Source: a virus. From it: a stretch of DNA of 64,000 nucleotides. The translations under genes and the position numbers were made by a program. Within the stretch, counting starts at the first letter, position 1; each line of letters opens with the position of its first letter. The notes under the pieces are model-generated. The model ran no database searches. It had not been told where the DNA came from and was given only the letters and a program-made list of their open reading frames with translations. Location of the stretch: the IMG/VR virus record IMGVR_UViG_3300045988_187372. The stretch is one strand, 5' to 3'. Shown piece after piece: positions 34,824 to 58,252 of this stretch.

Positions 34824-34999
34824 TATAACAAAAGCAGGAGATGCTTGCTTATCTCCTGCTAAAATATTAATTTCTAAATTGTTTTATAAACTATTCACAA
34901 CCGATTATTGTCGGATGAAGTTTTCTTGCTATTCTTCGATAATATAGAAATATAATTGATTTTTCCTTTTTAATTGGATATTTTATATATGACAAAAAA
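34824..34999 (-). ncRNA. candidate small RNA unit: promoter - repeat copy 4 - terminator, no ORF
   Basis: promoter motif 34985-34999, terminator hairpin AGCAGGAGATGCTTGCTTATCTCCTGCT + T-run 34824-34851 on minus strand. Confidence 0.35.
34888..34946. repeat. 60-nt conserved structured repeat, copy 4
   Basis: AACTATTCACAACCGATTATTGTCGGATGAAGTTTTCTTGCTATTCTTCGATAATAT; flanked by promoter motif (34985-34999) and terminator (34824-34851). Confidence 0.65.
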
Positions 35000-35001
35000 T
35001 A

Positions 35002-35436
35002 TCATTTAATCAAAATTCTAATCAAATTAGAATCTGCATCTGCTACAAAGTTTTCTATTAAAACTATTTTTATAATGTTGCTTTTGTTATCCACGAATGT
35101 ATATGTTAATACTGGATTTTCTAATACCGACTTATCTAAATCATAATATTTAATTAGTAAATTTCTTAACTTATCATAAATCATTATGAATTTATCTTTG
35201 TAATCATTTTGAACGATATGAACCTTCTTATCTTTAGCGTTAAATTTTATTCTGTCTTCCGAAATTGTAAATGCAGAAATTCCATTGTATATATTAAAAT
35301 TATAACTAAAAATATATTCATAATTAATTTCTGAAATGAAATTATTGATTATCTGGTTTAATTCATATCTAATTTTTTGTCTTGACACTTGTTTTTGTTT
35401 TGTTTTTCTCATAATTTTAAGCATAAAGTCCTCCAT
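35002..35436 (-). CDS. hypothetical protein
   Basis: 144-aa ORF; promoter 35461-35476. Confidence 0.5.
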   Translation of the reverse strand: MEDFMLKIMRKTKQKQVSRQKIRYELNQIINNFISEINYEYIFSYNFNIYNGISAFTISEDRIKFNAKDKKVHIVQNDYKDKFIMIYDKLRNLLIKYYDLDKSVLENPVLTYTFVDNKSNIIKIVLIENFVADADSNLIRILIK

Positions 35437-35460
35437 AATTAAAAAATATATTATATTTTT

Positions 35461-35476
35461 AATATGACAGAGGAAA
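35461..35476 (-). promoter_or_regulatory. conserved promoter motif
   Basis: AATATGACAGAGGAAA upstream of 35002..35436. Confidence 0.55.
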
Positions 35477-35526
35477 TAAAAAAACTGTCAGGACGATTCC
35501 TGACAGTTTAATTGTAAAATAATAAA

Positions 35527-38061
35527 CTATAATTCTAATTCGTCATCAAATATTCTATTTTCCTTATGTTCTACTTTAGATAAATTCTTTAAATCTAACT
35601 CATCTGCTGCCTTTACTGTTACTTTTTCTAATTCCTTATTGGCAACAGGATTATCTAATTTTTCAGATTTACCGCAAAATTCATTAGAAATATAATCAAG
35701 GTCATACGATGATACTACCTTTGCATTCTCTTTCAGACCTTCTTTTTGAACATCTAGTGGATATAATGAGAACACTGTATCAGCCTCTTTTATATCAGTT
35801 GTAAGCTCTCCGCAGCCTTCGGCATATAAATCAAATAATTGTTTCATATCTGGAATAGCGTTATTTAATATATATCCTAATTCAACTGATGTCTGTTTAT
35901 TTAAATCATTTGAAACAACATTCTGCCCTAAATTTAAACTGCCTACATGGTCAATCCAATATGTCGCATCATTTTCTACATCATAAACACATGGAGTTGC
36001 CATGGTTGATGCTGCATTTATTTTAATTGGATGCTCAATCTGTGATATTTCGAACTGTTTTCCAAGGAAAATAACAGATCGTTCATCTTTAATAAAATCA
36101 ATAACCTCATCATAATCATCATATTCAGCATCATGATCCCTATGACATGCTTTTCTTGTATCCATATACTCACCTAAAGAACCCTCTTTTTCCATTTCAA
36201 TAAATTTAAGTCCTTCAGCTTTATTAAATGGCACTGAGAATCCATGAATTTCTACAACAGCATATTTAATACCGGCATCTTTCATAGCTTTTTTATCTAA
36301 TAAAACCATTTCAGTAGCACCATTTGGGGCATCTGTATAATCGCCACTATGTACACCAAATTTTCCGGATTTTAAATTATAATAATACAGGGTATCAACT
36401 GTTATGTTTTTATCATTATAAAACTTAACACTTAAATCAATGTCCCCTCTTACTTCATGTCCATTATTATCCTTATAATTTTTCCAGTATATTCCATAAG
36501 CTAATAAGTTTTTATCCTGATCACCTGATAATCTACTATATGGAGTAATAATATTACCTGCAGAACAATCTCTCATATCTCTTAAAGGAATTTTAATATC
36601 TTCTAATTTAGGGTCAATATATACTTTACCCAACTGTTTTGTATCTGAAATGTTATGAACAATAGTCTGTCTAATAATATTTCTTATATTATTCATTTGA
36701 GCATCTGAAAGATGTAACGGTTTATTATCTGAAACTAATAATTTTCCATTTTTATTCTTATAAATTCTATTCTCATGTTCTTTATTTCTTAATTCAAACG
36801 AATTATACATAGTAAGCATTGATTGCACAGGAACATTACAATACATAATTTTGTTTGCAATTGAAGTTAAAGCTAAACCATTACCTTCTTTTGCTGCTTC
36901 ATCAACATACTGAATATAATGTTGAACAAAATACCCAGGGAAATTATCCGCAAGTTTATTAAATTTTTGTACATTTTCAAATGATGAAACTTTAATAAGA
37001 TTATCTATCGCTTTTTCAAACTGTCTTGGGACTGGAATAATATCCTTACCGTTTTCATCCTTTTTTATTTTATTAGCAAGATTATCAAACGCTTTTACTA
37101 CTCTTTCAGGACCAGTATGTGAATCAATTCTATTCATTAATCTCTTATATAATCCTTCATCCTTCCAGATATCATAGTAAAGATTTGGACAGTTATTTAA
37201 CATATCCTTTATTAACCTTTTGTCTGAATTGGTTAACTTATATTTAACTTTGCCGTTCTTATTTGAAACTGTTTTCTTAGTATTTAATGATATATCATTA
37301 ACTTTGCTTCCAAAATTCTGATTTGAAAGTTCTGCTGCAAATCTTAATACATCTTTAGAATCCTTTATCATATTAACTGCTGAATTTCTTGCACCCAGTT
37401 TATATAATAGACTAGCTGTTTTAACTAAATTTTCTTTACTCTGATAAGGTATCTCGGTTGAAACAATTTGGTCAATTTTAAATGGATATTCACGAAAATA
37501 TGTTTCAACATCTTTCAAGTTTTCTTCATTCATACCTTTTGGCGCATGAATTCTATTTACCATTAATTCATCTAATTCTTTTATATTTGTATTATTAATT
37601 ACCTTTAATTTGTCAGGGAAGTTTTCCAATAATGGAAGCCTGTCAATTTTTTCCTCAGTTACAGAATCTCTTATCATTTGTGCTATCGTTTTACATCTTT
37701 CATCATCTGTCTGGGAAAATGTATAATATAATAACGAATTAATATATAATGCTTCCTCAGATTTATCCATGACTTCTTCCGGGAAATTAGGATAGAATAA
37801 CTCAACAGAATTAAATTCATCAATCCCTTTATATTCTTTAATAATATCTGTCAAATCATTATATACCCCACATATTTCCTGTGCAGGCAATTTAGCTAAT
37901 GCGGATATAGCATCCGTGCTTAATGTATAACCATAACTTTCCAAATTTCTATTGACTGATAAAGCCATATTAATGTTTTCATATTCAATATCAATGGGAT
38001 TTTGTGGGATTGAAAACTTAGATAGATTGTTAAATAAAATAGAATTAATAGATTTGTTCAT
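35527..38061 (-). CDS. large hypothetical protein (844 aa)
   Basis: long uninterrupted ORF with RBS GGAGG; no motif recognised. Confidence 0.6.
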   Translation of the reverse strand: MNKSINSILFNNLSKFSIPQNPIDIEYENINMALSVNRNLESYGYTLSTDAISALAKLPAQEICGVYNDLTDIIKEYKGIDEFNSVELFYPNFPEEVMDKSEEALYINSLLYYTFSQTDDERCKTIAQMIRDSVTEEKIDRLPLLENFPDKLKVINNTNIKELDELMVNRIHAPKGMNEENLKDVETYFREYPFKIDQIVSTEIPYQSKENLVKTASLLYKLGARNSAVNMIKDSKDVLRFAAELSNQNFGSKVNDISLNTKKTVSNKNGKVKYKLTNSDKRLIKDMLNNCPNLYYDIWKDEGLYKRLMNRIDSHTGPERVVKAFDNLANKIKKDENGKDIIPVPRQFEKAIDNLIKVSSFENVQKFNKLADNFPGYFVQHYIQYVDEAAKEGNGLALTSIANKIMYCNVPVQSMLTMYNSFELRNKEHENRIYKNKNGKLLVSDNKPLHLSDAQMNNIRNIIRQTIVHNISDTKQLGKVYIDPKLEDIKIPLRDMRDCSAGNIITPYSRLSGDQDKNLLAYGIYWKNYKDNNGHEVRGDIDLSVKFYNDKNITVDTLYYYNLKSGKFGVHSGDYTDAPNGATEMVLLDKKAMKDAGIKYAVVEIHGFSVPFNKAEGLKFIEMEKEGSLGEYMDTRKACHRDHDAEYDDYDEVIDFIKDERSVIFLGKQFEISQIEHPIKINAASTMATPCVYDVENDATYWIDHVGSLNLGQNVVSNDLNKQTSVELGYILNNAIPDMKQLFDLYAEGCGELTTDIKEADTVFSLYPLDVQKEGLKENAKVVSSYDLDYISNEFCGKSEKLDNPVANKELEKVTVKAADELDLKNLSKVEHKENRIFDDELEL

Positions 38062-38105
38062 AATATAACCTCCAAAAAAATAAACACAATAGTTCTTACA
38101 AAAAA

Positions 38106-38145
38106 AGTCTTAATATCATAGTTTATTTACTATGACATTAAGACT
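38106..38145 (-). terminator. hairpin + T8 immediately upstream of the 844-aa gene
   Basis: AGTCTTAAT / ATTAAGACT 9-bp stem with 23-nt loop containing TATGACAT, followed on minus strand by TTTTTTTT. Confidence 0.45.
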
Positions 38146-38202
38146 CAAATAATATAATAATCAGCGTTAAACAAAAAAAATAATTTTCCATAATTTGAAA
38201 TA

Positions 38203-38465
38203 AAAGTAGGATGTTTAGCATAGATATTATTATATATTTTTATATTTTAATACATCAGCATATAGCAAAAGGATCTATGATTATAACAAGTTTATTCTTT
38301 ATTTAATCCCGCAGGATGTCTCAAAAGAAAACCTGATATAATCATACTTACTATCAGAATATTAAAAAGTAGGATGCTATATATATTATGCCTTAAAATA
38401 TAAATCTGAGTCAGCTTACAACAAATATAATAACCAAATTGTTTTTTATTTTAAAAAGTAGGATG
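38203..38465. repeat. three direct AAAA(A)GTAGGATG repeats in 480-bp noncoding region
   Basis: copies at 38203-38214, 38364-38376, 38453-38465, each followed 12-16 nt later by TATATT/TAAATA-like AT hexamer. Confidence 0.5.
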
Positions 38466-38508
38466 TTGTAAATAATACTCAAAATACTCCATTAATTTGA
38501 AAGCATAT

Positions 38509-38526
38509 ATAATATGACAGAAATAA
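38509..38526 (-). promoter_or_regulatory. conserved promoter motif
   Basis: TAATATGACAGAAATAAA immediately downstream of recA stop; faces the repeat-containing noncoding region. Confidence 0.5.
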
Positions 38527-38544
38527 AAAATAATATGATGATTT

Positions 38545-39639
38545 TTACTCATCAATTACATTTTTTATATTTTTTTCGGTAAAGGATGTAATATTTTCTT
38601 CTCCCTTAAGTCTTTTTCTGATTAAAGTTTCTAATTTATCTTTATATTCCGAGTGCTCTTCTATATATAATTTAGCATTTGCTCTGCCCTGCCATCTTAA
38701 ACTAGAATCTTCTGCATCTGTAAACCAAGCTCCAGTTTTATTGATAAATCCATGTTCAACAGCTAAATCAATTATTTCACCATTCTTGTCTATACCTTTA
38801 CCAAATGAAATTTCAAATGTTGCCTCCTTAAATGGAGGGGCTATTTTATTTTTAACTACCTTTGCTTTTGTTCTGTTAGCAACAATGGCTCCGCCTTCCT
38901 TAATTGACTCAATTCTTCGTACATCAATTCTTACAGAAGAGTAAAACTTTAATGCTCGTCCCCCAGTTGTTGTTTCTGGGTTGCCAAACATAATTCCAAC
39001 CTTTTCTCTTAACTGATTAATAAAAATAACTGAACAATTACTTTTACTTACAACGGGAGTCAATTTCCTTAAAGCCTGCGACATAAGTCTTGCTTGTAAT
39101 CCAACATGTGAATCCCCCATTTCTCCATCAATTTCTGCCTTAGGTACAAGAGCTGCTACAGAATCTATTACAACCAAATCTAAAGCTCCGGATCTTACCA
39201 TTGTTTCTGCTATTTCTAAAGCCTGTTCTCCGCTGTCTGGCTGTGAAATATATAAATTATTTATATCCACACCTAAATTAGAAGCATAAACAGGGTCTAA
39301 TGCATGTTCAGCATCAATAAACCCGGCAATTCCACCATTTTTTTGTGTTTCTGCAATCATATGCAAGGTTAAGGTTGTTTTACCACTTGATTCCGGGCCA
39401 AATACTTCTACAATTCTTCCTTTTGGAATTCCTCCGCCTAAAGCCTGATCCAGTGCTAAGGAACCTGATGAAAATGTTTCAACATTTAATTTCTTTGTAT
39501 CACCTAATTTAAAAACAGAACCTTTACCATAAGTCTTTTCAATTTCTAACATTGCAGCATCAAGTGCTTTTAATTTGTCATTTGAAATTGATTCGTTACC
39601 CTGTGTTTCGGCATTAATATTCTTTGGTGGTCTTCCCAT
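38545..39639 (-). CDS. recA: recombinase RecA
   Basis: [20 protein letters not shown] Walker A, L2/L1 loop regions, full-length 364 aa. Confidence 0.9.
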
Positions 39640-39674
39640 ATTTAATTCCTCCTAAAAAATGATTTATACATTGA

Positions 39675-39690
39675 TATATATGACAGTTTT
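39675..39690 (-). promoter_or_regulatory. conserved promoter motif
   Basis: TATATGACAGTTTTTG upstream of recA. Confidence 0.55.
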
Positions 39691-39729
39691 TGTTGAACAA
39701 TTTTTTACATAAATTAATTTAATTTATAT

Positions 39730-40221
39730 TTAAGAGACATTTTGTTTAAGCAACTCTTCTCTCTTTTTATCTAAATAGACTACACCAACAGCATATGAAG
39801 CCCAGATATCTTTTTTAAAGCCATAAAACCATCCCGGATTCTTTTTAGTTCCTACAATTCCAAATCTATCTATTAATGCTTGCCTTATATTCGCATCCTT
39901 TGCTCTCGAATCATGGCAAATAAATTGTTTTTCTTCTATTCTGTATATTTGCGTCCATTTAATATTTCTGCTTTCAGTTACTTGAATGAATCTGCCAATC
40001 CATACACATGTATCAAATACAGTTTTTCCTACTGCCATACCATATGAAGCTATCATTTCTATTGCTAAAATATCAAAATCAATTTTATTCATTAATTTTA
40101 ATAATTCATTATTATCTAATAATCCTTTGTCCAATATATGATAATTACTATCTAATAATGAATAAGCCGATTTAACATCTCCTGGATCTATTGCTAATAT
40201 AATCTGTCTATTATTTTCCAT
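39730..40221 (-). CDS. RuvC-like Holliday junction resolvase (putative)
   Basis: ILAIDPGDVKSAYSL N-terminal catalytic Asp motif and downstream AIEMI acidic residue; 163 aa. Confidence 0.5.
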   Translation of the reverse strand: MENNRQIILAIDPGDVKSAYSLLDSNYHILDKGLLDNNELLKLMNKIDFDILAIEMIASYGMAVGKTVFDTCVWIGRFIQVTESRNIKWTQIYRIEEKQFICHDSRAKDANIRQALIDRFGIVGTKKNPGWFYGFKKDIWASYAVGVVYLDKKREELLKQNVS

Positions 40222-40252
40222 ATTTTTCCTCCAATATATATAACTTTATATT

Positions 40253-40268
40253 AAAAATATGACAGCTT
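40253..40268 (-). promoter_or_regulatory. conserved promoter motif
   Basis: AATATGACAGCTTAAA upstream of RuvC-like gene. Confidence 0.55.
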
Positions 40269-40351
40269 AAAAAGAAAAATAAGACAATCTCAAATCAATG
40301 AAATTGCCTTATTTATTAAAATATTTAGTTGCTGTGTTGTGTATTCAGATA

Positions 40352-42127
40352 TTAATAATCAATATCTTCGAAAATAATCTGTGGAGTTGTTACGCCATTC
40401 CATGTATTTTCACTTAATCTTCCATATAAAGTTAAAACAGTTGGTTCTCCAAGCTTTTCAAATTTTTCAACTAACCCGCCAAAATTAATTGCGTTAGCCT
40501 GATTATTAAAGAGTTTTAAAACCTTTTTTTCAGCACCCAAAAGCTGATAATATACACCTTTTCTTAGTTCTGTCATATAAGAAATTTTATATCTTGGCTC
40601 TTCAAATCCTTTTCCAAAAATGTAATTATGAAAGGCTTCCTGCTCTTCCTTTACCTGCTCTACTGTAATATCGTAATCATAATACTTGTAATTGAACTCT
40701 TTTGGCTTTTCTCCTGCAGCTTCATGTATAGCTTCAATAAACTTATCCATATTTTCAGCTTTAACTTCTGAAATACCTGCTGCATACGGATGTCCTCCAT
40801 AATTACCCATATACTGCTTAACCTGATCTAATAATAACTTCATATTAACATTTGCCCCTTCAATTTCTGGTGCTCTTGCAGAACCTTTATAGGCGGTACC
40901 ATTATTTATTGGAGCAAATACAATAACAGAAGTATTGTATTCTTCCTGTAACTTACCGGCAATTAAGCCAATAACTCCCGGATGTATTTCTCCTTCCTTA
41001 CCACATATAACAATAGGATAGTCATTTTCCATATGAGCTTCCTCTATACGCTGTTTTAAAACAGGTAAAAGGTCATTAGTATATGCCTTTCTTTTTTCGT
41101 TTGCTTCTACTAGAACCTTTGCTTTTGCAATTGCTGTAACAAAGTCATTGTCATTCTGAAGGAAAAGGTCTACTACCTGATTAGAACCAAAAGTTTCCAG
41201 TCTTGAAATAGCGTTAATGGTAGGACTTATTAAATAAGCTAAATCATCAGTTGTTACAACAGTTTCAAGATCAGGTTTAAGACCTACAAGTAAGCAGAAC
41301 ATTCCGGTTGTACGTCCAGAATTCTGTGTTAATGTGAATAGCCCGTTCTTGAGTATTAAATAATTATCATATCCATATACTCCATTAATATTTTCAATTA
41401 AATTAACACTATCACCAACAGTTGCAATAGCAGCAAGACCGTTTATCTTATCTATTGTTTCATCTTTAATATACCATTCTGGCAAATTTAATTGCTTAAT
41501 ATGCTGAGCAAATTTATATACAAGCCCTGCACCACAATAATCTGAGAATTTTGCACCACAATCAACTGCATGAGGATCAATAATTACATCTGCAGGTGGC
41601 AATATTTTTTTTTTATTGGTTTCGTCAATAACTGGAAGGTGATGATCTAAAATAAGAACACTCCAACCTAATTCTTTTGCCTTTGTTATTGCATCAAGAG
41701 CTGCGATACCATTATCTACAGTTATTAATAATCCTGTATCATAATTTTTTATAACTGGTAAACCATGAATTGATATTTCGTTACATAAATATTCTACAAT
41801 ATTTGCAGAAGCTCCATATCCATCTAATTCTCTATCTGGTATATACCATTTTACATCTGAGAATTTAAGGTCTAATAACATAAGATTTAATTCAGATGTT
41901 GAACATATTCCATCGGTATCATAATCTCCTATTATTCTAACTGGCTTATATTTAAATAAACTAAGTAAATTAAACGCCTTGTCAAAATCGGAAATTTTAT
42001 AATATTCAGATGTTTCTCTACCATTATTAAAATCAGCAAAATATTTATTTGCTTTTTCAATAAAATTTACCTCATCAGTATTTTTCTTCTTCCATGTTAT
42101 ACACATATAATTTGTTCTCCTTTTCAA
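40352..42127 (-). CDS. RecJ-like DHH-family ssDNA exonuclease
   Basis: IIGDYDTDGI (DxD), ILDHHLP (DHH), YGGHPYAAGI (DHHA1 GGH). Confidence 0.75.
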   Translation of the reverse strand: MKRRTNYMCITWKKKNTDEVNFIEKANKYFADFNNGRETSEYYKISDFDKAFNLLSLFKYKPVRIIGDYDTDGICSTSELNLMLLDLKFSDVKWYIPDRELDGYGASANIVEYLCNEISIHGLPVIKNYDTGLLITVDNGIAALDAITKAKELGWSVLILDHHLPVIDETNKKKILPPADVIIDPHAVDCGAKFSDYCGAGLVYKFAQHIKQLNLPEWYIKDETIDKINGLAAIATVGDSVNLIENINGVYGYDNYLILKNGLFTLTQNSGRTTGMFCLLVGLKPDLETVVTTDDLAYLISPTINAISRLETFGSNQVVDLFLQNDNDFVTAIAKAKVLVEANEKRKAYTNDLLPVLKQRIEEAHMENDYPIVICGKEGEIHPGVIGLIAGKLQEEYNTSVIVFAPINNGTAYKGSARAPEIEGANVNMKLLLDQVKQYMGNYGGHPYAAGISEVKAENMDKFIEAIHEAAGEKPKEFNYKYYDYDITVEQVKEEQEAFHNYIFGKGFEEPRYKISYMTELRKGVYYQLLGAEKKVLKLFNNQANAINFGGLVEKFEKLGEPTVLTLYGRLSENTWNGVTTPQIIFEDIDY

Positions 42128-42141
42128 TATTATTTAACAAA

Positions 42142-42157
42142 TTAATGACAGAAAAAT
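42142..42157 (-). promoter_or_regulatory. conserved promoter motif
   Basis: TTAATGACAGAAAAAT upstream of RecJ-like gene. Confidence 0.55.
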
Positions 42158-42211
42158 AAAATAAAAAGCATACATTATATTGTTTTATGCAATACAATGT
42201 ATACTTCTGAA

Positions 42212-42598
42212 TCATAAATAGAAAAACAACCCTGAATAATAATACTTAGGAAGTTTATCTATCTCTTTACAAATTTGAATAATTCTTTCATCCACTAAAA
42301 AAGAATATTGTTTTACTCTTCTTACATCAGATTTAAAATAATGTACATCATTTATAAATCCTATAAGAAAAGTAAAGAATATAACATAAGACAAAATACT
42401 TATTATACTTAATATAATATGTATTAAACCTGTAGTTAATAAATTCAAATTTGTAAAAATAGAAATTAACAAAGTTACACATAACTTTGTCTGCTGCATA
42501 GCTGTATATTTTTCAATATCACGCCAATAAGTTGTATAACCTGCAGCAACAGAGTTATATTTCTTTAAGAAAAAATGATTTAATATATTTTTATTCAT
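42212..42598 (-). CDS. membrane protein
   Basis: 128 aa with TM helices. Confidence 0.5.
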   Translation of the reverse strand: MNKNILNHFFLKKYNSVAAGYTTYWRDIEKYTAMQQTKLCVTLLISIFTNLNLLTTGLIHIILSIISILSYVIFFTFLIGFINDVHYFKSDVRRVKQYSFLVDERIIQICKEIDKLPKYYYSGLFFYL

Positions 42599-42642
42599 TA
42601 TTTCTTCTCCTTTATTAATTATATTCTGATAGATATATGACA

Positions 42643-42658
42643 GAAAAATTAATAGGAG
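42643..42658 (-). promoter_or_regulatory. conserved promoter motif
   Basis: ATATATGACAGAAAAA upstream of 42212..42598. Confidence 0.6.
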
Positions 42659-43004
42659 TATGTATATAATTTTTATTCCCTTATTACAATAAATGATAAA
42701 GTAATTTTTAGACTTAATTTAATTAATATGAAAATATCAAATTTATTAATAATAGAGTATGGAGTTTTACTATAATTTTTATAAAATTACATTTTAGAAA
42801 ACAAATAATTACTAAAATATAAATCAGCTTATTAATAGATTAATTTGTATATCAAAAATATTCAAAAATATAATTCTGGGTGCTGTTGATATTTTTAAAA
42901 TTCATAAAAATAATATATGAAATGATTCATTTGCTTTTAGGGTAACTTTAATAAGAATACCGTGTATACGCTATTCAAAATCCTAAAATATTGAAATTAT
43001 TTTT

Positions 43005-44771: not shown

Positions 44772-44804
44772 AAATAACCTCGCTATGAAAATCTTATATA
44801 TATC

Positions 44805-44820
44805 TTTATGACAGACAAAA
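44805..44820 (-). promoter_or_regulatory. conserved promoter motif
   Basis: TTTATGACAGACAAAA upstream of start 44771. Confidence 0.5.
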
Positions 44821-46840: not shown

Positions 46841-46899
46841 ATGAACTACTCACAACCGACTATTGTCAGATGGAGTTTTCTTACTATTTTTCAATAAAA
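46841..46899. repeat. 60-nt conserved structured repeat, copy 5
   Basis: ATGAACTACTCACAACCGACTATTGTCAGATGGAGTTTTCTTACTATTTTTCAATAAAAA in helicase 5'UTR. Confidence 0.7.
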
Positions 46900-48413: not shown

Positions 48414-48435
48414 ACGGCCTCCTAAAAAATTGGTT

Positions 48436-49755: not shown

Positions 49756-49814
49756 ATAAATCCTCCAAAATATATTAATCTTATATTGTTTGATAGAAAA
49801 TTAATTCTATATAA

Positions 49815-49830
49815 TATATATGACAGAACA
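49815..49830 (-). promoter_or_regulatory. conserved promoter motif
   Basis: TATATATGACAGAACA upstream of 48436..49755. Confidence 0.55.
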
Positions 49831-49881
49831 AAATAAAAAACAGGGCAATATATACCCTGTTTTAAATCATTAATTTACATT

Positions 49882-50241
49882 TTAAATATTTATTTCTAAA
49901 TATTTTTCTTGTTCATCATTTAATGCATCATATATTTCCGTAGAAGGAATTACTTCACAATTCATTAAACTATTATGATATGATTTTTTAGAAACATCAT
50001 GACGTAAATGATCAATAGGCACTCTTAGATTCCACATTTTTATTGCTTCATCTTTAGTCTTACCCATTCCACCGCTGGCTCCACAGCCTCCTTTTGCGTA
50101 ATCGCAAGTAATCTTAAAGCCATTAGTTTTAATAGGGATAATACTCATTGAGTCCCACTTTCTACAAAATGGACATCTTTTGAGTCCTACCTTATTTGTC
50201 TTATTTATTGCATTTGTTGACACTGTTGCTGTTGTTACCAT
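49882..50241 (-). CDS. Lar-family restriction alleviation protein
   Basis: CPFCRKW...C..GGCGASGG...KDEAIKMWNLRV matches Lar family CPFCG...eAi.aWNrR pattern. Confidence 0.6.
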   Translation of the reverse strand: MVTTATVSTNAINKTNKVGLKRCPFCRKWDSMSIIPIKTNGFKITCDYAKGGCGASGGMGKTKDEAIKMWNLRVPIDHLRHDVSKKSYHNSLMNCEVIPSTEIYDALNDEQEKYLEINI

Positions 50242-50271
50242 TATTGTATTCTCCTTTTTTCTAGTTGTTTT

Positions 50272-50784
50272 TTAAATTGATGAATTCGAAGAAGTAATTG
50301 TATGTTCGATATTTTCAATTCTTATATTATCATCAAATAATTTTTCTATTGGTGATTTATCTTTGTCTGAAATCAGATTATATTTATTTGCAATTCTTGG
50401 CATCATTCTATGTAAATCTTCAAGTTTAAAACTTCCGTAAAAACTCAGAAAATTCTCACGATTCATACTATAATTGCTATTAGAGTTTTTATAAAATTGA
50501 TTTATTTCTCTTCTTAAAGCTTCTTGTATTATACTCGGAAGCTCTGATACACATGTATGTCGATCTACTATACCTGCATCATACCAGTTGTACTTTTCTA
50601 AATCAGCCTTAGAAATAATAGTTTTGGATAATAAAAATCCAAATGCAGTTATTCTTTCTGACTTTTCAGATTCATGCTTCTTTATAATGATATCTTTAGC
50701 TTCATTAAAATTTTGAAAAGCTATTGGCTCAATTGAATCTGGGATTTCCTCTATAGTATCCTTTAAAGCATAATATTTATACAT
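50272..50784 (-). CDS. hypothetical protein
   Basis: 170-aa ORF; RBS GGAGG. Confidence 0.5.
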   Translation of the reverse strand: MYKYYALKDTIEEIPDSIEPIAFQNFNEAKDIIIKKHESEKSERITAFGFLLSKTIISKADLEKYNWYDAGIVDRHTCVSELPSIIQEALRREINQFYKNSNSNYSMNRENFLSFYGSFKLEDLHRMMPRIANKYNLISDKDKSPIEKLFDDNIRIENIEHTITSSNSSI

Positions 50785-50796
50785 AAAATTACCTCC

Positions 50797-51012
50797 TTAA
50801 GATGCCAATACAGTTGCATCAATAATATCAATTACTTTTCTCAATCCATCATTATATGTTTTGCTTCCGCAAATAATATTAATAATAGAATCCTGAGTTC
50901 TGTTATCATTTAATACACAAAAATCATCTGCTATTACCATTAATTGTTGTGCATCTGTAATTGGCATTAATATTTTTCTGTCACCTATCATTTTTTGATA
51001 TCTCTTCTTCAT
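50797..51012 (-). CDS. hypothetical protein
   Basis: 71-aa ORF; promoter 51046-51060. Confidence 0.45.
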   Translation of the reverse strand: MKKRYQKMIGDRKILMPITDAQQLMVIADDFCVLNDNRTQDSIINIICGSKTYNDGLRKVIDIIDATVLAS

Positions 51013-51045
51013 AATTTTTCTCCTTTGGCTTTGTTATCATATATA

Positions 51046-51060
51046 TTGAATGACAGAAAT
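51046..51060 (-). promoter_or_regulatory. conserved promoter motif
   Basis: TTGAATGACAGAAAT upstream of 50797..51012 / Lar operon. Confidence 0.5.
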
Positions 51061-51127
51061 ATAAAATAAGATAAAAAATATAATACTGTTTCTTAAATTA
51101 AAATCTTAAATGCTGTGATTGTTTAAA

Positions 51128-51742
51128 TTAGTGTTTAGAAAACCATTCTATCCATTTACTTGTGTCTTGTAATTCTATGAATTTACTAGAATATTTTACG
51201 CAATCATAGTGCCCTATTGTGATTAGCGCATAAATAATAAAATTATTTTCATCGTTACTAATTTTGCAATTATAAGATATATTTCTTTTATTCTTTTCTA
51301 AGCAAAAGAATTTATTGTATATTTTTGTTTCATAATTAATTGACTGTAATACAACAACAATAATTTTATTATTTTTTTTGATACACATAAGGTTTTTATT
51401 AAATAATTTTGATTCATATAATGAATAGACATTTTCTCCATCTCTAATTGTTCTATAGAAATATTTTTTTCGTTCATAATAACTTTCTTCCTGATCAATA
51501 ATATAAAAATCGCTTGATTGAAAATTAAAAATGAATAATCTGTTTTTATCTGAAAATAAATTATAATAATTATTGTTATATGCAAGTGTTCCACTTAAAT
51601 CAATTTTGTTATTTTCAGAAAGTCTTGAATTTTGTATTATATGCTTTTTGTTTTCTTGTATGATATTTGGGAATTTTAATTCATATGAATACAGCCTATT
51701 TTCTTTTTTGGTATTTTCAATACATGGTATATTAATAAACAT
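51128..51742 (-). CDS. hypothetical protein
   Basis: 204-aa ORF; promoter 51783-51797. Confidence 0.5.
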   Translation of the reverse strand: MFINIPCIENTKKENRLYSYELKFPNIIQENKKHIIQNSRLSENNKIDLSGTLAYNNNYYNLFSDKNRLFIFNFQSSDFYIIDQEESYYERKKYFYRTIRDGENVYSLYESKLFNKNLMCIKKNNKIIVVVLQSINYETKIYNKFFCLEKNKRNISYNCKISNDENNFIIYALITIGHYDCVKYSSKFIELQDTSKWIEWFSKH

Positions 51743-51857
51743 AATATCTGTTTAACTCCTTAAATTAAAATCTTAATTAATAAATATATGACAGTTTAAA
51801 AAAATATTTTTCGAAAAACAATATAAAAAACAGCCATCAAATGATGACTGTTTTTGC

Positions 51858-52529
51858 TTAAGATTTTTTATTTTTAACTTTTTTAATTATGTTCCAATCC
51901 TCTTCTGTGAAATATGGATACATATCATAGACTGCAAATTCTCCATCTTTTTTAGAAATTGTATATTCTAAAACAATATGAAGTCCATGACAGTCAAAAG
52001 GAATATCATAGTTTGTACCTTTTACAATTCCTTTTCCTATAACCGTATTAGATACTATATCTATAACTAAACGATTATGTCTTCTATCGTTGTAATAAAT
52101 ATCTCTATCCTCACACCAGTTCTGAATTTTAGAAATAATAGAGGTATTATTTGAAGCAATTAAAACTCTCTCTAATGCTTCAGATGCACTTTCTAATGAA
52201 CCAAACCATGTAGGATGAAAGGTACCATTCTTAGCACCTTTCATCCCTTTCTTTTCTTTTGTAGCTTCAGAAATTTTATTTATAGCCCATGAAATTTCTG
52301 GAGCTATATGTTGTAGCACATGAGGAGTATGTTCCTCAACATAATCATTTGCTCCTGATCTGGTTTCAACCAAATCATTAGCTTCAAAATTAAAGAGATA
52401 TTCTTCTGCATCATAAAATTTTTCGATATATGATGCTACATTAAAAAAATCCTTTTTATATGTGCCAGCCTTTTTGTCTGACATAATTTCATTTAATTCT
52501 GCCATAGTGCAGCGTTCCTTTCTTCGCAA
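51858..52529 (-). CDS. hypothetical protein
   Basis: 223-aa ORF. Confidence 0.5.
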   Translation of the reverse strand: MRRKERCTMAELNEIMSDKKAGTYKKDFFNVASYIEKFYDAEEYLFNFEANDLVETRSGANDYVEEHTPHVLQHIAPEISWAINKISEATKEKKGMKGAKNGTFHPTWFGSLESASEALERVLIASNNTSIISKIQNWCEDRDIYYNDRRHNRLVIDIVSNTVIGKGIVKGTNYDIPFDCHGLHIVLEYTISKKDGEFAVYDMYPYFTEEDWNIIKKVKNKKS

Positions 52530-52606
52530 TGTGCGAACAAAAAAGCTACCCTAAAAAGTCTATAAAGACATTTTAAGGTAGCTAAACAAATAGTTCTCAA
52601 AATTAT

Positions 52607-52894
52607 TTAATCTGGATTATATGGATATTCTATAAAGAATTCATATTCCGGATTGTCGCTCATTAAGCGGGCAATATTTTCTGCTTTGGATACATAATAT
52701 GTATGTCTGTTATCCAACCCATCCTTTTCATTAAGCATTTCGCACTTAGCTCGTGTAACAATCTTATGAAACTGATTACCAGATAAATCTACAATTATTT
52801 CGTTATCTCTATAGAAATAATCAATATTTTTTCTTTCAAGAATTTTGTTAATATAAGGAATTAATTCTTCTTTTGCCTTCTTAAAATGTCTCAT
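52607..52894 (-). CDS. hypothetical protein
   Basis: probable start MRHFKKAKE at 52894 with RBS AAGGGAG; promoter 52945-52962 inside longer track ORF. Confidence 0.45.
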   Translation of the reverse strand: MRHFKKAKEELIPYINKILERKNIDYFYRDNEIIVDLSGNQFHKIVTRAKCEMLNEKDGLDNRHTYYVSKAENIARLMSDNPEYEFFIEYPYNPD

Positions 52895-52944
52895 ATATAA
52901 GACTCCCTTCTTGGAGTTATTCTCCATTAAATTTATTGATAAAA

Positions 52945-52962
52945 AATATATGACAGAAAAAA
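52945..52962 (-). promoter_or_regulatory. conserved promoter motif
   Basis: AATATATGACAGAAAAAA upstream of 52607..52894. Confidence 0.55.
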
Positions 52963-52979
52963 CAGTATATGTTAAAGAT

Positions 52980-55313
52980 TTATCCAAACTGTTGTCTTTT
53001 TATTAAAATATTATTATATATTTCATCCCAGTATTTATTTATAGCATCAATTTCTTGTTGATCAGTTAATGCGTTCTTATCGATAATAACATCATCAAGA
53101 CTTTTTATAACAGTATTAGCAGTTTTATAATCTGAAATATTAGTATTCTCAGCTTCTTTTAAAGCATCATATGCTTTTTTGTAACAAAAACTGGCATTTT
53201 CATAATTAGGAAAATCGATTTGGAAAAAATCTTTTTTACCAGAATTATAATTACATTTTTTTCCTTCCCAGTCAATATAATGCTCATAAATAGTTTCAGG
53301 TTTCTCAAATTCCTTATTATCTAAATTCTGGTGCAAATATTCATTAAACTGCTTCCATATTTCTCCACATATTGCTGAACCATTATCAAAATTTTTAGGA
53401 ATATCATATCCGGTCCATATACATGTTGTGTAATATGGTGTATATGCACATAGCCAAGAGTCCTTGTTATCATTCGTTGTTCCAGTTTTTCCTGCACAAA
53501 TCTGATTATCTATTTGATAATTTTTGACGTATCCTTCTGTAAAATTTGAAATTAAACAATCTGTCATCATATAAGCGGTGCCTTTTTTATATACTTGAAT
53601 ATCTTCTTTATTTTGATATATTTCTTCATTTTGACGCAACATATGTTTGATGCATGTATTATTATTGTATTTACCATTATTAGCTAATGCATTGTATGCT
53701 TTAGTCATGTTTTCTACTGTTACACCATTTGTAAAACCACCTATGGCAATTGCAGCATTATTATTATCTTCATATGAAATATTATAAAAGTGCATTTTAT
53801 TTAAATACTCTAAACAATTATTTATTCCAACATTCATTAATGTTTTAACAGCCGTTGTATTGACTGATTGTAATAAAGCTGTTCTTACTGAAATATTGCC
53901 TCTGTAATATCCATCATGATTTTTAGGCTGATATTTACCCTCAAGTGGAGAATCCAAAATCATAGATGATGGATGATAGTCTAAAATATCAAAAGCCGGA
54001 GCATAATCTAATATTGGTTTAATGGAAGAGCCTGGTTGTCTAGGAGATTGATATGCTCTATTTATATATTCATTATCTTCTTGTCCACCTATAATTGCTC
54101 TAACATATCCAGTTTCATTATCAATACACATGGATGATGTTTGAAGAAGATGCCGCCCATCCTCGGATAAGCTGTTATCATATTGTGATAAAACATTTTT
54201 TGAAATTTGTAATAGCTCAAGCTGCTTATCTTTATCTATTGAAGTATATATCCTGTATCCTCCAGTTAATATTTCTTCTTTGTACTTAGAGTATATTTTA
54301 TTATATTGATTAATATAATCTTGCTCATCTTCTGAAGAATCAAAAAGGTATTTAAAATTAAATCTATTTATTTCCATAAGATATTCAATAGAACATTTAA
54401 GTGTATATGAAAATTCATAAGATGTTGGTAAATCAGATGTTTCTTTATATAAAATTAAATCAAGAGGATCTTCTAATGCTTCATTGTATTGTTTTTCTGT
54501 AATTATTTTCTGATTATACATTGTATTAAGGACTTGATTTCTTTTACATATTGCTAATTCATAATTTGTTTCAGGATTATATTTTGTAGGGGCATTTGAA
54601 ATACCTATTAACATTGCGGCCTGAGATATTGTTACATCAGATGCATCACATCCAAAATAATATTTACAAGCTGCCTGAATTCCGTAACAATTGCTGCCAT
54701 AGAAATTAGAGTTTAAATACATTTCAAGTATTTGTTCTTTAGAATATGATTTTTCCATTTCAAGTGATGCTATTATTTCAGTAAGTTTTCTATCTATTGT
54801 TTTGTTTGAATTTTTTATAACAATATTTTTTACAACTTGTTGTGTGATTGTACTGCCGCCCTGAGTTATTTTCCCTTTATTCTTTATATAAGCCAAAGAA
54901 GCTCGTAACAATGCTTTAGCATCAATACCTTTATGAATATAGAAATTCTTATCTTCCACAGCAATATATCCTTGTATTATATAATCACTGACATCGCTGA
55001 TATTAACATATTCATAAGAGCCGTTAATATTAGCTGCCATTAATGTACCGTCATCATAATAAAAGTATGTATTCAGTTCTTTATTAAATTCATCTTGGTT
55101 CATATTTTGTAATGACTCATACGCATTCTCCTGTGCCAATTTGAATTTACTATAAAATTTGATATAAAATACTGATAATGATATTAAAGATAATAATATG
55201 ACTATCATAATAATCAATATAAAAATTTTAAATATGGTTAAAAGATGATTTTTCTGTTTTTTTAGTGGAATATTTTTATCATCATTATAAAGTGGTTGTT
55301 TTTTAGAACTCAT
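52980..55313 (-). CDS. class A penicillin-binding protein (glycosyltransferase + transpeptidase)
   Basis: N-terminal TM anchor; GT51 motifs [12 protein letters not shown] and GGSTITQQ; transpeptidase SxxK (PGSSIKP), SVN, KTGTT. Confidence 0.85.
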
Positions 55314-55344
55314 AATTATTCTCCTTTATATTTATTTACACAAT

Positions 55345-55360
55345 AAATATGACAGAGAAT
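55345..55360 (-). promoter_or_regulatory. conserved promoter motif
   Basis: AAATATGACAGAGAAT upstream of PBP gene. Confidence 0.6.
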
Positions 55361-55368
55361 AACAAAAA

Positions 55369-55391
55369 GCTCCCACCATTAAGGTGAGAGC
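55369..55391 (-). terminator. intrinsic terminator
   Basis: GCTCTCACCTTAATGGTGGGAGC + TTTTTGTT. Confidence 0.6.
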
Positions 55392-55577
55392 TATAATCAA
55401 AGTTGCTAGTAGAATTGTAAAATTCTATTAAAGTGTATTTTACGACAAAATTACCGGCTTTAACAAAAGTGCTAGTCTTTGAGGAGGCATATATGTATGC
55501 CTAATATGTACCGACAATATTTTATCACATTGTAAATTATAATACAATATTGATTTAATCATTATATGACAGATTTT
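55385..55577 (-). ncRNA. candidate small RNA unit between two promoter motifs
   Basis: promoter motif 55563-55577, hairpin AGGCATATATGTATGCCT, terminator 55369-55391, then second promoter 55345-55360 for PBP gene; only a 16-codon ORF without RBS. Confidence 0.35.
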
Positions 55578-55590
55578 TGATTGCAAATTT

Positions 55591-56724
55591 TTACATAATT
55601 TTATTTTTGCCTGTTCTTTTAGCTTTATACAAATTTTTATCTGCTGCATCAAATAAATCGTGAACGGTATTATTTTTCTTATATTCTGTTATTCCTCCAG
55701 AGAAAGTAAATTGCTGCGGAATATTCTCATATTTAATATTGTTGAATTTAATTCTGATATCGTTAATTATATTATACGCCTCAGTATATTCATAATCTGC
55801 AAATAATATTCCGAATTCTTCGCCTCCATATCTGGCGACAAAAATATTTGATTGGTTAATATTTTGAAGTTCCTTAGCTAAATTAATTAAAACAGTATTT
55901 CCAAATTCATGTCCATATGTATCGTTAACTGATTTAAAATCATCTATATCTATTATACAAAAATAAAGTTTTTTCTTATATGATATCCATTTCTTTGTTG
56001 TATTAAAAAGAGACATATAATTATCTAATCGAGTTAATCCATCTTGTGAAATTTCTTTTAGTAATTGTGCATTTCTATTTTCAGATAAAACCAGTTTAAG
56101 TTCTTTTTCTTTCTCATATTTAATAACAAGTCTCGAATAAATATATGCAAATATTGTTATGATACATGATAAAAACATATATATTAAATAATTTGATGGT
56201 AACTTATTTAATTCAGAGATTGATGATAATGAAATTGTAATAATTTCAAATTGACTTATCAAAAATAATTGCCAATTAACCTTGTTACTACCATATACAA
56301 TACACATAAAAATTGGGCAGGCTATTAATGTATATAATACCGGATAATTATAATGAATGATAATTGAAACCACTATAATTAAAGTTAAAATATACAAAGG
56401 CATGGCTTCATATATTTCTGGTTTAATATTATCTTGATATTTTCTTATAATATGTCTACCGGTAAACCATATTATTAAATTAGATGTAGTAGGTATAAAT
56501 ACATTCAATATAATATAAGATAATATATTTATTGTTTGTTTTTCTATTATTATATGTATTGGTATAAATAATAATTCAAAAACAAATATTGTGATTATTA
56601 TAAGAAGGTTAATAGCCATTATTTTATTTTGAAATTTATTATACAAATATGCATATAAACTGGTTTGTTTTTCTGTATGCTCTATTGTATTATCTTGTAT
56701 TTTAATTTTTTCTATTGTTTTCAT
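55591..56724 (-). CDS. membrane-anchored GGDEF diguanylate cyclase
   Basis: multi-TM N-terminus; DIDDFKSVNDTYGH...RYGGEEFGILFAD. Confidence 0.85.
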   Translation of the reverse strand: MKTIEKIKIQDNTIEHTEKQTSLYAYLYNKFQNKIMAINLLIIITIFVFELLFIPIHIIIEKQTINILSYIILNVFIPTTSNLIIWFTGRHIIRKYQDNIKPEIYEAMPLYILTLIIVVSIIIHYNYPVLYTLIACPIFMCIVYGSNKVNWQLFLISQFEIITISLSSISELNKLPSNYLIYMFLSCIITIFAYIYSRLVIKYEKEKELKLVLSENRNAQLLKEISQDGLTRLDNYMSLFNTTKKWISYKKKLYFCIIDIDDFKSVNDTYGHEFGNTVLINLAKELQNINQSNIFVARYGGEEFGILFADYEYTEAYNIINDIRIKFNNIKYENIPQQFTFSGGITEYKKNNTVHDLFDAADKNLYKAKRTGKNKIM

Positions 56725-56865
56725 AATAATATTTATTAATCACTGAATCCCTTATCTGAAGATAAGGGAAGAAGCAATTCTCCTTTCTGCCATATTGCAT
56801 CTTTTTGTTTCTAATATATGAGCATTTTACAAAGTTATTATCATTTTTTTTAATTAAATCTAACA

Positions 56866-58080
56866 TTACTCTGTTGCATCATAAAATTCTTTCTCCGGAT
56901 ACAATTCATTCAAATTTTCTGCTAAATCAATTTCTTCAAGTAAAGCATTATAATTCATTTTGATTTTTTCAGATTTAATTAAACTTAACATAGCATCTGC
57001 AATTACAGGATCAAATTGAGTACTTTTACCTTTTTCAAGCTCATTGATTACAATTATTGAATCTAAATGTTTTCTATATACTCTGTCACTTGTCATTGCG
57101 TCAAAGGCATCTGCCACAGAAATAATCCTTGCAATATAAGGTATTTGTTCTCCCTTTAAGCCATCTGGGTATCCTTTTCCGTCATATCTTTCATGATGAT
57201 ATTTTGCTCCTAAATCAATGTCCTTAAGCATTGACATATCTTTTAAGATATTTCCGCCTATTACTGTGTGGTTCTTCATTACTTGGTACTCTTCATTTGT
57301 TAATTTTCCTGGTTTGTTTAATATGCTATCCGGAATTCCTAGTTTTCCTATATCATGCAATAGTGCTATTGAATGAATATCTTCAATCTCATTTTTATTC
57401 ATTCCTAATTTATATGCTAATAAGGCTGTATAATCTGCTACTCTGGTTGAATGGCCTTTGGTGTAATTATCTCTGGCATCGATAATATTTGCTATAGTTG
57501 TAACTGTTTGGAGAGACATTTTATTAATTTGTTCTATTTGATTTATTATTGTTTGTGTATTTTGCAAATTTAGGTCTGTATTTCTTTTATAAAACTTTGA
57601 AACAATATATGCTGCAGCAAAGCATAAAATAATTATTGCAAGTTGTATCTCCATGTCTTTGCCACCTGATTTATCAATTTTATTATATGTTTTAATAAAT
57701 ATTGCCGTAATATTCAACACTGTCGAAAATAAACCGGTTACTATAATTAAAGTTGGATCATAATATAAAATTAAAAGCAGGATAATTGGGAATATATAAG
57801 TAAAACATAAAACAGTATTTCCTGTAAATAAGGTAAATGTATACATTATTAAAAACGAGAATGTTACAAAATATTTTAAAAATAGCCAGTTTTTATTATA
57901 AATAAAAACCAACCACCCTGTTAAATTCGGGATACTAATTAATATAGCAAATATTGCAAAATATGGTGGTGATATAGCATGTTTTAACATTTCACCAAAA
58001 TAAATGCCTAATAGTGTTATTGTTATTACTGACCAACCACATAAAAGTGATGTATTTAATCTTTCTTGTTCTCTATCCAT
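56866..58080 (-). CDS. membrane-anchored HD-GYP phosphodiesterase
   Basis: multi-TM N-terminus; HSTRVA...LLHDIGK...HHERYDGKGYPDGL. Confidence 0.85.
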   Translation of the reverse strand: MDREQERLNTSLLCGWSVITITLLGIYFGEMLKHAISPPYFAIFAILISIPNLTGWLVFIYNKNWLFLKYFVTFSFLIMYTFTLFTGNTVLCFTYIFPIILLLILYYDPTLIIVTGLFSTVLNITAIFIKTYNKIDKSGGKDMEIQLAIIILCFAAAYIVSKFYKRNTDLNLQNTQTIINQIEQINKMSLQTVTTIANIIDARDNYTKGHSTRVADYTALLAYKLGMNKNEIEDIHSIALLHDIGKLGIPDSILNKPGKLTNEEYQVMKNHTVIGGNILKDMSMLKDIDLGAKYHHERYDGKGYPDGLKGEQIPYIARIISVADAFDAMTSDRVYRKHLDSIIVINELEKGKSTQFDPVIADAMLSLIKSEKIKMNYNALLEEIDLAENLNELYPEKEFYDATE

Positions 58081-58116
58081 AGGTCCTCCTTATAGTCAAA
58101 AAAAGTTATATTAATA

Positions 58117-58133
58117 TATATATGACAGATAAT
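58117..58133 (-). promoter_or_regulatory. conserved promoter motif
   Basis: TATATATGACAGATAAT upstream of HD-GYP gene; no motif between HD-GYP and GGDEF genes (operon). Confidence 0.6.
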
Positions 58134-58141
58134 ATTAAAAA

Positions 58142-58252
58142 AAGAGTTCAACGTGACTAAGTAAGATCATGCTTACCGTTACCGCTGAACCCTTTTTATA
58201 AAAATATAATTAGCTCCTTTATTTTTAGCTAATAATAATATGACAGAATTAA
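58142..58252 (-). ncRNA. candidate small RNA unit: promoter - ~50-nt imperfect hairpin - T-run
   Basis: promoter motif 58236-58252; long hairpin 58142-58193 (AGAGTTCAACG...CGCTGAACCCT with inner GTAAG/CTTAC) flanked by A-run and T-run; next promoter 58117-58133 drives HD-GYP gene. Confidence 0.35.

Follow-up and report, generated by a model that had tools for sequence, protein, structure and literature searches.

Several described systems can be compared with the stretches of DNA discussed here. DapZ and MicL of enterobacteria are small RNAs derived from the 3′ untranslated region (UTR) of an mRNA and have an internal promoter, RsaE/RoxS are C-rich, anti-Shine-Dalgarno (anti-SD) small RNAs of Firmicutes, and PATEs are miniature, palindrome-associated derivatives of elements of the IS200/IS605 family. 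In T4-type phages, small non-essential genes have on either side short conserved elements, known as PeSL cassettes, in which a promoter is combined with a stem-loop terminator (Arbiol et al. 2010, PMC2839356; Comeau et al. 2014, PMC4122927), and their recombination is held to cause the insertion, deletion and replacement of genes between close relatives (PMC2839356, PMC4122927). Insertion sequences (ISs) of the IS200/IS605 family that encode TnpB have a guide RNA at their right end (Karvelis et al. 2021, PMC8612924); the characterised guide RNAs are ~150 nucleotides (nt) long and span the 3′ end of tnpB and the right end of the IS (PMC8612924). Here, we describe three short promoter-to-terminator units in a 64,000-nt stretch of DNA (hereafter, the window) that is filed in IMG/VR as virus record IMGVR_UViG_3300045988_187372, and which an initial annotation, made from the sequence, had proposed to encode three phage small RNAs. 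On balance, we favour the reading that the units would be by-products of a cassette-style genome with three different histories: units 1 and 3 are most likely emptied cassettes, the former with the scar of a TnpB insertion sequence, and unit 2 is the only one that we regard as a credible candidate for a non-coding RNA.

A genome of terminator-promoter cassettes

The window has a GC content of 27% and a GC skew that is negative throughout, and its minus strand carries nearly all genes, so that each of the units reads from high to low coordinates. Genes and small operons are, with few exceptions, set off by an intrinsic terminator with an element-specific promoter behind it, and the usual order on the minus strand is gene, terminator, promoter, ribosome-binding site (RBS), gene. 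The motif TGTCATAT occurs 37 times (5.7 expected, a ~6.5-fold excess), with 30 of the occurrences on the minus strand, and is usually preceded by a C and a T-tract and followed after 30-45 nt by an RBS and an ATG; this T-tract normally belongs to the end of the preceding gene's terminator. Two promoter classes can be told apart: class I, in which a T-tract is followed by cTGTCATAT, and class II, in which TTATGTAAAAA is followed after ~19 nt by cTGTCATAT, with identical spacing in seven of seven cases. A scan of the window with the sigma-70 consensus revealed no excess of sites, and the cTGTCATAT promoters are presumably read by the element's own sigma factor, which is encoded at 8353-9381 on the minus strand and contains the Sigma70_r2 and r4 domains (regions 2 and 4). 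Gene content between the cassettes differs among related lineages, and the cassette genes of the relatives have no homologs here; repeated terminator-promoter composites that flank variable small genes, as in a PeSL-like arrangement, are present. The genome of this element can thus be described as a series of terminator-promoter cassettes with an unusual promoter motif.

The three units exist, all on the minus strand, at 34827-34994 (unit 1), 55361-55598 (unit 2) and 58137-58245 (unit 3). The initial annotation had given each of them a full promoter motif, which is correct for units 2 and 3; the motif of unit 1 lacks the near-invariant C and reaches a weight-matrix score of 11.8, as compared with ~22-30 for most gene-proximal promoters. 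All three end in a hairpin with a T-run, as had been described, but the T-run of unit 1 is short (TTTTGTT). A second promoter serves the next gene in each case, as had been stated, and all three of these are class I promoters on the minus strand: 34773-34780 for gene 34738..34466, 55347-55354 for the gene of a class A penicillin-binding protein (PBP; 55313..52980) and 58120-58127 for the HD-GYP gene 58080..56866. The absence of a translated open reading frame (ORF) was also borne out, as in none of the units does a minus-strand ORF combine an RBS with a start codon. Small peptides were rejected on this ground and on that of 1-nt, frame-breaking indels by which strains differ inside units 2 and 3, which argue against coding. 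Judged by sequence motif, all three units therefore have what a small RNA would have, namely their own promoter (weak in unit 1), a terminator and no translated ORF, and because this anatomy is real, short transcripts are plausible. Fold prediction likewise agreed with the earlier proposal for units 2 and 3, whose predicted structures are far more stable than those of shuffled sequences. Between each of units 1 and 2 and the stop codon before it, however, there are at most 7 nt and no terminator, so that both are also 3′ UTRs; the placement of the units in front of particular genes, although non-random, is thus a weak argument, as these two could just as well be described as closing the genes that precede them. 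When the units were scanned individually against Rfam by E-value, no score came close to a gathering threshold and no known aptamer or leader family was found, and a cyclic di-GMP (c-di-GMP) riboswitch in unit 2 or 3 was rejected, with no hit even at an E-value of 10. What stands of the proposal of three small RNAs is hence the anatomy, whereas the evidence described below splits the class in three.

Unit 1 and the D2 repeat

The promoter motif of unit 1 (tTGTCATAT, 34987-34994, minus strand) lies 7 nt past the stop codon of a 140-amino-acid (aa) gene (35424..35002) and is followed by an RBS-like AAAAGGA (34964-34970), which has no start codon after it; in both unit 1 and unit 3 (AAAGGAG) the RBS-like sequence stands at the usual distance of 17-18 nt from the promoter. 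The body of the unit is the fourth copy of a repeat that we call D2 (34886-34938, 53 nt), with TTAT on its 5′ flank (34939-34942), in agreement with the initial annotation, which had placed repeat copy 4 in its unit at 34824-34999. The terminator (34827-34860, minus strand) has a 10-bp stem and also ends the 140-aa gene. Unit 1 was found in all 13 population sequences, and variation among them is concentrated in the D2 copy. In more distant relatives the position is occupied by genes: a 70-aa gene between two near-identical terminator-promoter cassettes in L184, where the 312-aa neighbour is 62% identical, and a 73-aa gene in L185 (46% identical). Unit 1 would be a cassette from which the ORF was lost, leaving behind the promoter, the RBS-like AAAAGGA, a solo IS end and the terminator, and it is most likely an emptied cassette with a TnpB insertion-sequence scar.

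The identity of D2 was established by comparison with complete elements. The window contains six copies of ~52 nt each, all on the gene strand, and when an assembly collection was scanned with the D2 core pattern, related low-GC contigs from the gut proved to have this 3′ core where a 462-aa ORF ends. In L141, the 462-aa ORF between the two ends encodes TnpB (Pfam OrfB_IS605, 3.5e-17; Cas12f1-like_TNB, 2.8e-08). Autonomous copies are thus associated with tnpB, as expected of the IS200/IS605 family, and the full IS present in L141, L172, L124 and L104 has left and right ends that resemble each other and carry subterminal palindromes; no tnpA was seen beside the tnpB copies inspected, the genomes themselves not having been searched for this gene. 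The left end of the full IS, which is flanked by TTAT, consists of CGAAAAATAGCAAGAA, a hairpin block (AACTCCATYCGAC..GTCGGTTGTGAG) that is shared between the ends, and ATGAATTGC..., and the right end consists of ...ACATGTAACATAGA, the shared block in the form AACTCCATCCGAC..GTCGGTTGTGAG, and TAGTTCAT, after which the flanking DNA begins. D2, again flanked by TTAT, has CGAAGAATTGCAAGAA as its 5′ part, contains the same AACTCCATCCGAC..GTCGGTTGTGAG block as the ends of the four full copies, and finishes with TAGTTCAT. D2 thus combines the beginning of the left end with the ~30-nt shared hairpin block and the last 8 nt of the right end; compared with the right end alone, approximately the last 37-45 nt are shared and the part upstream of these is left-end sequence. 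TTAT is found on the 5′ flank of six of the six D2 copies in the window and of three of the four full ISs. D2 may have arisen by recombination between two direct-repeat ends, removing the interior of the IS, or may have spread as a miniature element.

As D2 matches the ends of an insertion sequence, the repeat is fully explained and other identities were dropped. A coding repeat was rejected, the reading frame differing between copies, as were a self-cleaving ribozyme of the hammerhead or pistol type, with no hit to Rfam ribozyme families, a solitary CRISPR repeat, a nut/put-like antiterminator and a site for an RNA-binding protein. The full right end of the IS has no match in Rfam. Its core, GAAACTCCAACCAAACGCAGTTGGTTGCGAGTAGTTCAT, is present in multiple copies in contigs of Meiothermus luteus (L046, L052, L053, L056, L057 and L070), a member of the Deinococcota with a GC content of 66%, and this type of TnpB right end is therefore very widely distributed.

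The other five copies in the window, all on the minus strand, are found in a range of contexts. Copy 1 (15512-15563), a solo IS end that is absent in strain L016, lies upstream of an 85-aa gene, copy 2 (17155-17206) between the genes 17853..17221 and 17131..16142, copies 3 (32812-32863) and 5 (46842-46893) between a class II promoter and the flotillin and UvrD genes, respectively, and copy 6 (60536-60586) between the stop codon of a 238-aa gene and the terminator. D2 thus occurs in four kinds of setting: between a class II promoter and its gene, between cistrons, upstream of the 85-aa gene and before terminators. Strains L012 and L015 have an additional copy near window position 25340. TnpB insertion sequences hence leave recognisable 52-nt solo ends within the transcription units of the element.

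Two further observations concern intact insertion sequences. In loci L020, L022 and L025 (positions 1-200), a different TnpB IS, which encodes a 418-aa OrfB_IS605 protein and has a right end of the form ...CGGTAATTCAATTACCGATGTAGTTCAC, is inserted at window position ~61390, between the promoter at 61400 and the 238-aa gene; in the window itself this site is empty. In L172 (~10700-12300, minus orientation), the full TnpB IS directly follows a cTGTCATAT promoter, an RBS and ATGTTAT, and provides a live example of the start of a cassette gene being disrupted by such an element.

Unit 3, upstream of the HD-GYP gene

Unit 3 follows immediately after the terminator of a 47-aa gene (58251-58288, minus strand). 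It has a class I promoter motif (58238-58245, weight-matrix score 24.8), and its predicted RNA comprises a 5′ hairpin (TTAGCT..AGCTAA, 58210-58232) that encloses a vestigial RBS, AAAGGAG, within the loop and the 3′ arm, then a linker rich in A and U, and finally an imperfect hairpin of 50 nt with a T7 run (58137-58197), all on the minus strand; its predicted folding energy is -28 kcal/mol, with a z-score of -5.4. No start codon follows the AAAGGAG, and the 5′ part of the unit groups with real promoter-RBS cassettes of the window (repeat families D1 and D3). The unit is polymorphic between strains for a 1-nt indel, and a scan of IMG/VR with the unit 3 pattern returned chance coding matches only.

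Homologous hairpins are present in L027, L030 and L188, whose HD-GYP proteins are 67-68% identical to that of the window. In these relatives, the hairpin is located ~13 nt past the stop codon of a 134-aa gene, which in turn follows a 56-aa gene with an ordinary cassette promoter; the hairpin has no promoter of its own there, and neither gene has a homolog in the window. On its 3′ side, the hairpin is followed by a T-run and the HD-GYP promoter in L027 and L188 and by a pseudogene-like insertion in L030. A third lineage (L029, L031 and L187) has an unrelated terminator at this position. Across the four hairpin sequences, 16 base pairs are 93.8% paired, four pairs being changed on both sides and three on one side. 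The organisation in the window suggests that a normal promoter and the RBS-like AAAGGAG have become joined directly to a long hairpin terminator, the ORFs between them having gone; if the promoter fires, unit 3 would give a hairpin RNA of ~100 nt. Unit 3 is thus most likely an emptied cassette as well, although the conserved internal loops of its long hairpin leave some scope for a further role.

Unit 2, between the HD-GYP/GGDEF operon and the PBP gene

Unit 2 has a class II promoter, of which the upstream element TTATGTAAAAA (55588-55598) overlaps the stop codon of the GGDEF gene and the cTGTCATAT motif lies at 55564-55571. The structured body (55410-55548) contains hairpins at 55529-55548, 55469-55502 and 55410-55427, the second of which is the AGGCATA..TATGCCT hairpin that had been noted before in a unit placed at 55385-55577, and is followed by an exposed CCUCCUCAAAGACUAGCAC. 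The terminator (55361-55392) has a 10-bp stem with six GC pairs, followed by TTTTTGTT, and also ends the HD-GYP/GGDEF operon; all of these features are on the minus strand. The ~200-nt body is predicted to form several hairpins with a folding energy of -48 kcal/mol and a z-score of -3.8. Unit 2 is single-copy and has no vestigial RBS.

In L029 and L187, whose PBPs are 61-62% identical to that of the window, the whole order is kept: GGDEF stop codon, class II-type promoter, hairpins, terminator, class I promoter and PBP gene. The counterpart in L029 has a folding z-score of -5.0, and common to the units of the window, L029 and L187 is the motif CCTCC(N1-2)AAAG..TAG.(C)AC in an unpaired context. 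Between L029 and L187, one compensatory pair differs in the long hairpin and the terminator stems are entirely different. Comparison with relatives, which the initial annotation had suggested, gives a mixed picture: unit 2 has counterparts in two of them and is absent from others, the hairpin of unit 3 is conserved but lacks a promoter of its own in the lineages that share it, and unit 1 is replaced by protein-coding cassettes. Unit 2, which goes with the GGDEF-PBP junction in two lineages, is the only good candidate for a non-coding RNA, and a credible one, a promoter-to-terminator module that appears to be conserved in a separate lineage.

The CCTCC sequence is rare, with seven occurrences on the minus strand of the 64-kb window, and is complementary to the AAAGGAGG ribosome-binding sites of the element. 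For a 40-nt probe taken around it from unit 2, the predicted pairing with translation-start regions exceeded that of shuffled probes only to a modest extent (mean of -12.0 versus -9.7 kcal/mol), and the target prediction proposed earlier yielded generic anti-SD pairing without complementarity to a specific target. On the opposite strand, at 55469-55495, a strong GAGGAGG is followed after 5 nt by ATG TAT GCC TAA, a three-codon mini-ORF, which is probably a mere complement of the CCUCC motif and the hairpin. Unit 2 RNA would be made both as the 3′ UTR of the HD-GYP/GGDEF operon and as a transcript of its own, and it might either act on ribosome-binding sites in the manner of an anti-SD RNA or insulate the PBP gene from upstream transcription. 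It offers one defined, testable candidate beside c-di-GMP and peptidoglycan genes.

A fourth promoter-to-terminator stretch

The initial list of three units was incomplete, as a fourth unit of the same type had been overlooked at 38100-38519 on the minus strand, between recA and an 844-aa gene. It is ~410 nt long, from the promoter (38512-38519) to the terminator (38100-38144), and contains an RBS-like AATGGAG after the promoter, three to four irregularly spaced copies of ACATCCTACTTTTTAA, and only tiny ORFs, none of which is credible. It is ~98% conserved in strains L147 and L165.

Weighing the explanations

The view closest to the initial annotation, that all three units are trans-acting small RNAs with their own promoter and terminator that base-pair with host or element mRNAs, draws on the shared anatomy of promoter motif, missing ORF and terminator, on the retention of the units in every strain sampled, on the stable predicted folds of units 2 and 3, on the classic layout of unit 3 (5′ hairpin, AU-rich linker, terminator hairpin) and on the somewhat better-than-shuffled pairing of the unit 2 probe with RBS regions. 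We nevertheless find it very doubtful: the body of unit 1 belongs to a repeated transposon end whose copies also lie in 5′ leaders, between cistrons and in 3′ UTRs, units 1 and 3 contain vestigial ribosome-binding sites, the hairpin of unit 3 stands without a separate promoter in the relatives, Rfam has no match for any of the units, and the pairing seen is of the generic anti-SD kind. Another reading has unit 2 as a conserved regulatory RNA of a widespread gut mobile element, transcribed from the class II promoter within the end of the c-di-GMP operon, whose exposed CCUCC..AAAG..UAG motif would control the translation of host or element mRNAs or of the adjacent PBP gene and which would thereby link a second-messenger and a peptidoglycan module; separately, the long hairpin of unit 3, with its covarying stems and conserved internal loops, might be bound by a protein or ligand and be more than a simple terminator. 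This pair of proposals seems quite unlikely to us. A further variant concerns the D2 transcripts, that of unit 1 included, which would be orphan TnpB guide RNAs, with the guide being the 16-20 nt after ...GTAGTTCAT. D2 and the right end of the IS do finish with the same hairpin-TTGTGAGTAGTTCAT sequence, unit 1 provides a promoter and a terminator around one D2 copy, and in characterised IS605-family elements the right end marks both the end of the guide RNA and the start of the guide (PMC8612924). However, left-end sequence has replaced all but about the last 37-45 nt of the right end in D2, as against guide RNAs of ~150 nt and scaffolds of ~100-150 nt in characterised systems (PMC8612924), so that D2 does not contain a guide-RNA scaffold and a working guide is unlikely; moreover, the window has no tnpB of the D2-related family and most D2 copies have neither a promoter nor a terminator of their own, which together make this variant barely credible.

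A different possibility is that the units are cis-acting, conditional terminators, at which an antitermination signal (a protein, a ligand or a modified RNA polymerase) permits read-through into the PBP, HD-GYP or 90-aa gene, with the second promoter providing independent expression. Units 1 and 2 are contiguous with the genes upstream, all lineages have a class II promoter ahead of the PBP gene, with a terminator and a class I promoter interposed in the window, L029 and L187, and the covarying stems and conserved loops of unit 3 would suit a hairpin before the HD-GYP gene to which a protein or ligand binds. On the other hand, the units match no known riboswitch or leader family, c-di-GMP classes included, and inspection by eye revealed no competing antiterminator structure into which the 5′ halves of the terminator stems could pair. 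Every downstream gene has a good promoter of its own, so that read-through is unnecessary for its expression, and we consider this explanation unlikely.

Several points weigh against the by-product reading that we favour. The internal loops of unit 3, GCGGTAA and TAGTYAC, are conserved in sequence at 67-68% protein identity, which exceeds the need of a plain terminator. The body of unit 2 does not align cleanly with those of L029 and L187, and its presumed homology to them would rest on architecture and a short motif; in L027, L030, L188, L189 and L190, which have no GGDEF gene upstream, a class II promoter directly precedes the PBP gene and unit 2 is absent. Sites that lack D2 contain an extra 6-11 nt of AT-rich filler, and the insertion or deletion of D2 was therefore not clean. 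The term 'emptied cassette' describes a history inferred from two or three lineages, and the opposite direction, with the relatives gaining genes, is possible. Within the population, conservation of the units is similar to that of their flanks (97.7-100%), which leaves no power to detect selection, and the promoters, RNA ends and read-through discussed here are predictions from the DNA sequence. That gene-less cassettes appear to arise at all calls, in our view, for caution before each promoter-to-terminator stub is called a small RNA.

The element and its gene content

In human gut metagenomes the element is very common; the index of the assembly collection has a 90-aa protein of the window in 2303 blocks, and the places that were read were human-gut assemblies in every case, with contigs of 246-812 kb. 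IMG/VR contains two contigs of the same element, at 96-99% identity, and no diverged relatives; among INPHARED phage records there is no near match to the window, with distant protein hits only. Its host is probably a low-GC Firmicute. The window encodes RecA, RecJ, two UvrD-type helicases, a flotillin, a PARP-like protein, a Zn-ribbon DnaG-type protein, and the HD-GYP/GGDEF pair and class A PBP already discussed, while a gene for a Mob_Pre plasmid-recombination/relaxase protein is found at the window edge on the opposite, plus strand (62740-63945). No tRNA or tmRNA was found in the window, and a scan of it at Rfam gathering thresholds gave 0 hits. No virion genes were seen among the genes of the 64 kb, so that the designation 'phage' comes from the IMG/VR label alone; with Mob_Pre present and virion genes absent in the window, the element may be either a phage or a megaplasmid. 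The 'Hodor' gut megaplasmids (PMC12934698) were considered as a possible identity and rejected, as their GC content is 44-47% versus 27% here.

Three other regions of the window deserve mention. Two minus-strand ORFs, 18222..20771 and 10817..12502, match a single phage DNA polymerase family, phrog_405, the first in its N-terminal part (positions 48-660) and the second in its C-terminal part (positions 661-1103), and are separated by ~5.7 kb of other genes, indicating that the polymerase gene is split. A 1.2-kb AT-rich stretch at 7117-8350 has no ORF of more than 60 aa, a locally reversed GC skew and five or six copies of ATATATTGTTA at ~7270-7520, and may be a replication origin or another non-coding feature. 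Finally, two adjacent minus-strand paralogues at 20883-22034 and 22167-23216 (383 and 349 aa), with DNA segments that are 78% identical (repeat families D7, D16 and D19), have no match in Pfam or PHROG.

Comparison with known systems

Among the anti-SD small RNAs, RsaE/RoxS differ from unit 2 in having repeated C-rich loops rather than a single motif, with no similarity in sequence or in Rfam, and the pairing of unit 2 with translation-initiation regions is just modestly above that of shuffled probes; what unit 2 and its L029 and L187 counterparts appear to have in common with them is a CCUCC in an unpaired stretch or loop. The position of unit 2, and formally that of unit 1, in the 3′ UTR of an upstream operon with a shared terminator is like that of 3′UTR-derived small RNAs, and a promoter motif that overlaps or just follows the stop codon would be a further parallel. 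Unlike DapZ and MicL, unit 2 has no chaperone context, and the probable host is a low-GC Firmicute.

The resemblance of D2 and its full-length relatives to the IS200/IS605 family is closer. It extends to subterminal palindromes at the left and right ends, a tnpB with OrfB_IS605 and zinc-finger TNB domains, the TTAT tetranucleotide on the left flank, and copies in one orientation that are present or absent between strains; D2 itself carries the start of the left end, the shared hairpin and the terminus of the right end. Unlike two-hairpin miniature elements, it is a single-hairpin, left/right hybrid of ~52 nt, and the AT-rich filler at D2-less sites departs from a clean peel-and-paste mechanism.

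For the genome as a whole, the PeSL cassettes are the nearest parallel. The promoter here is the element-specific cTGTCATAT and not a sigma-70-like sequence, host and element are unrelated to T4, and empty cassettes are a matter of inference; as with PeSL cassettes, however, the 70-aa gene of L184 lies between near-identical terminator-promoter composites, and gene content varies at the cassette borders.

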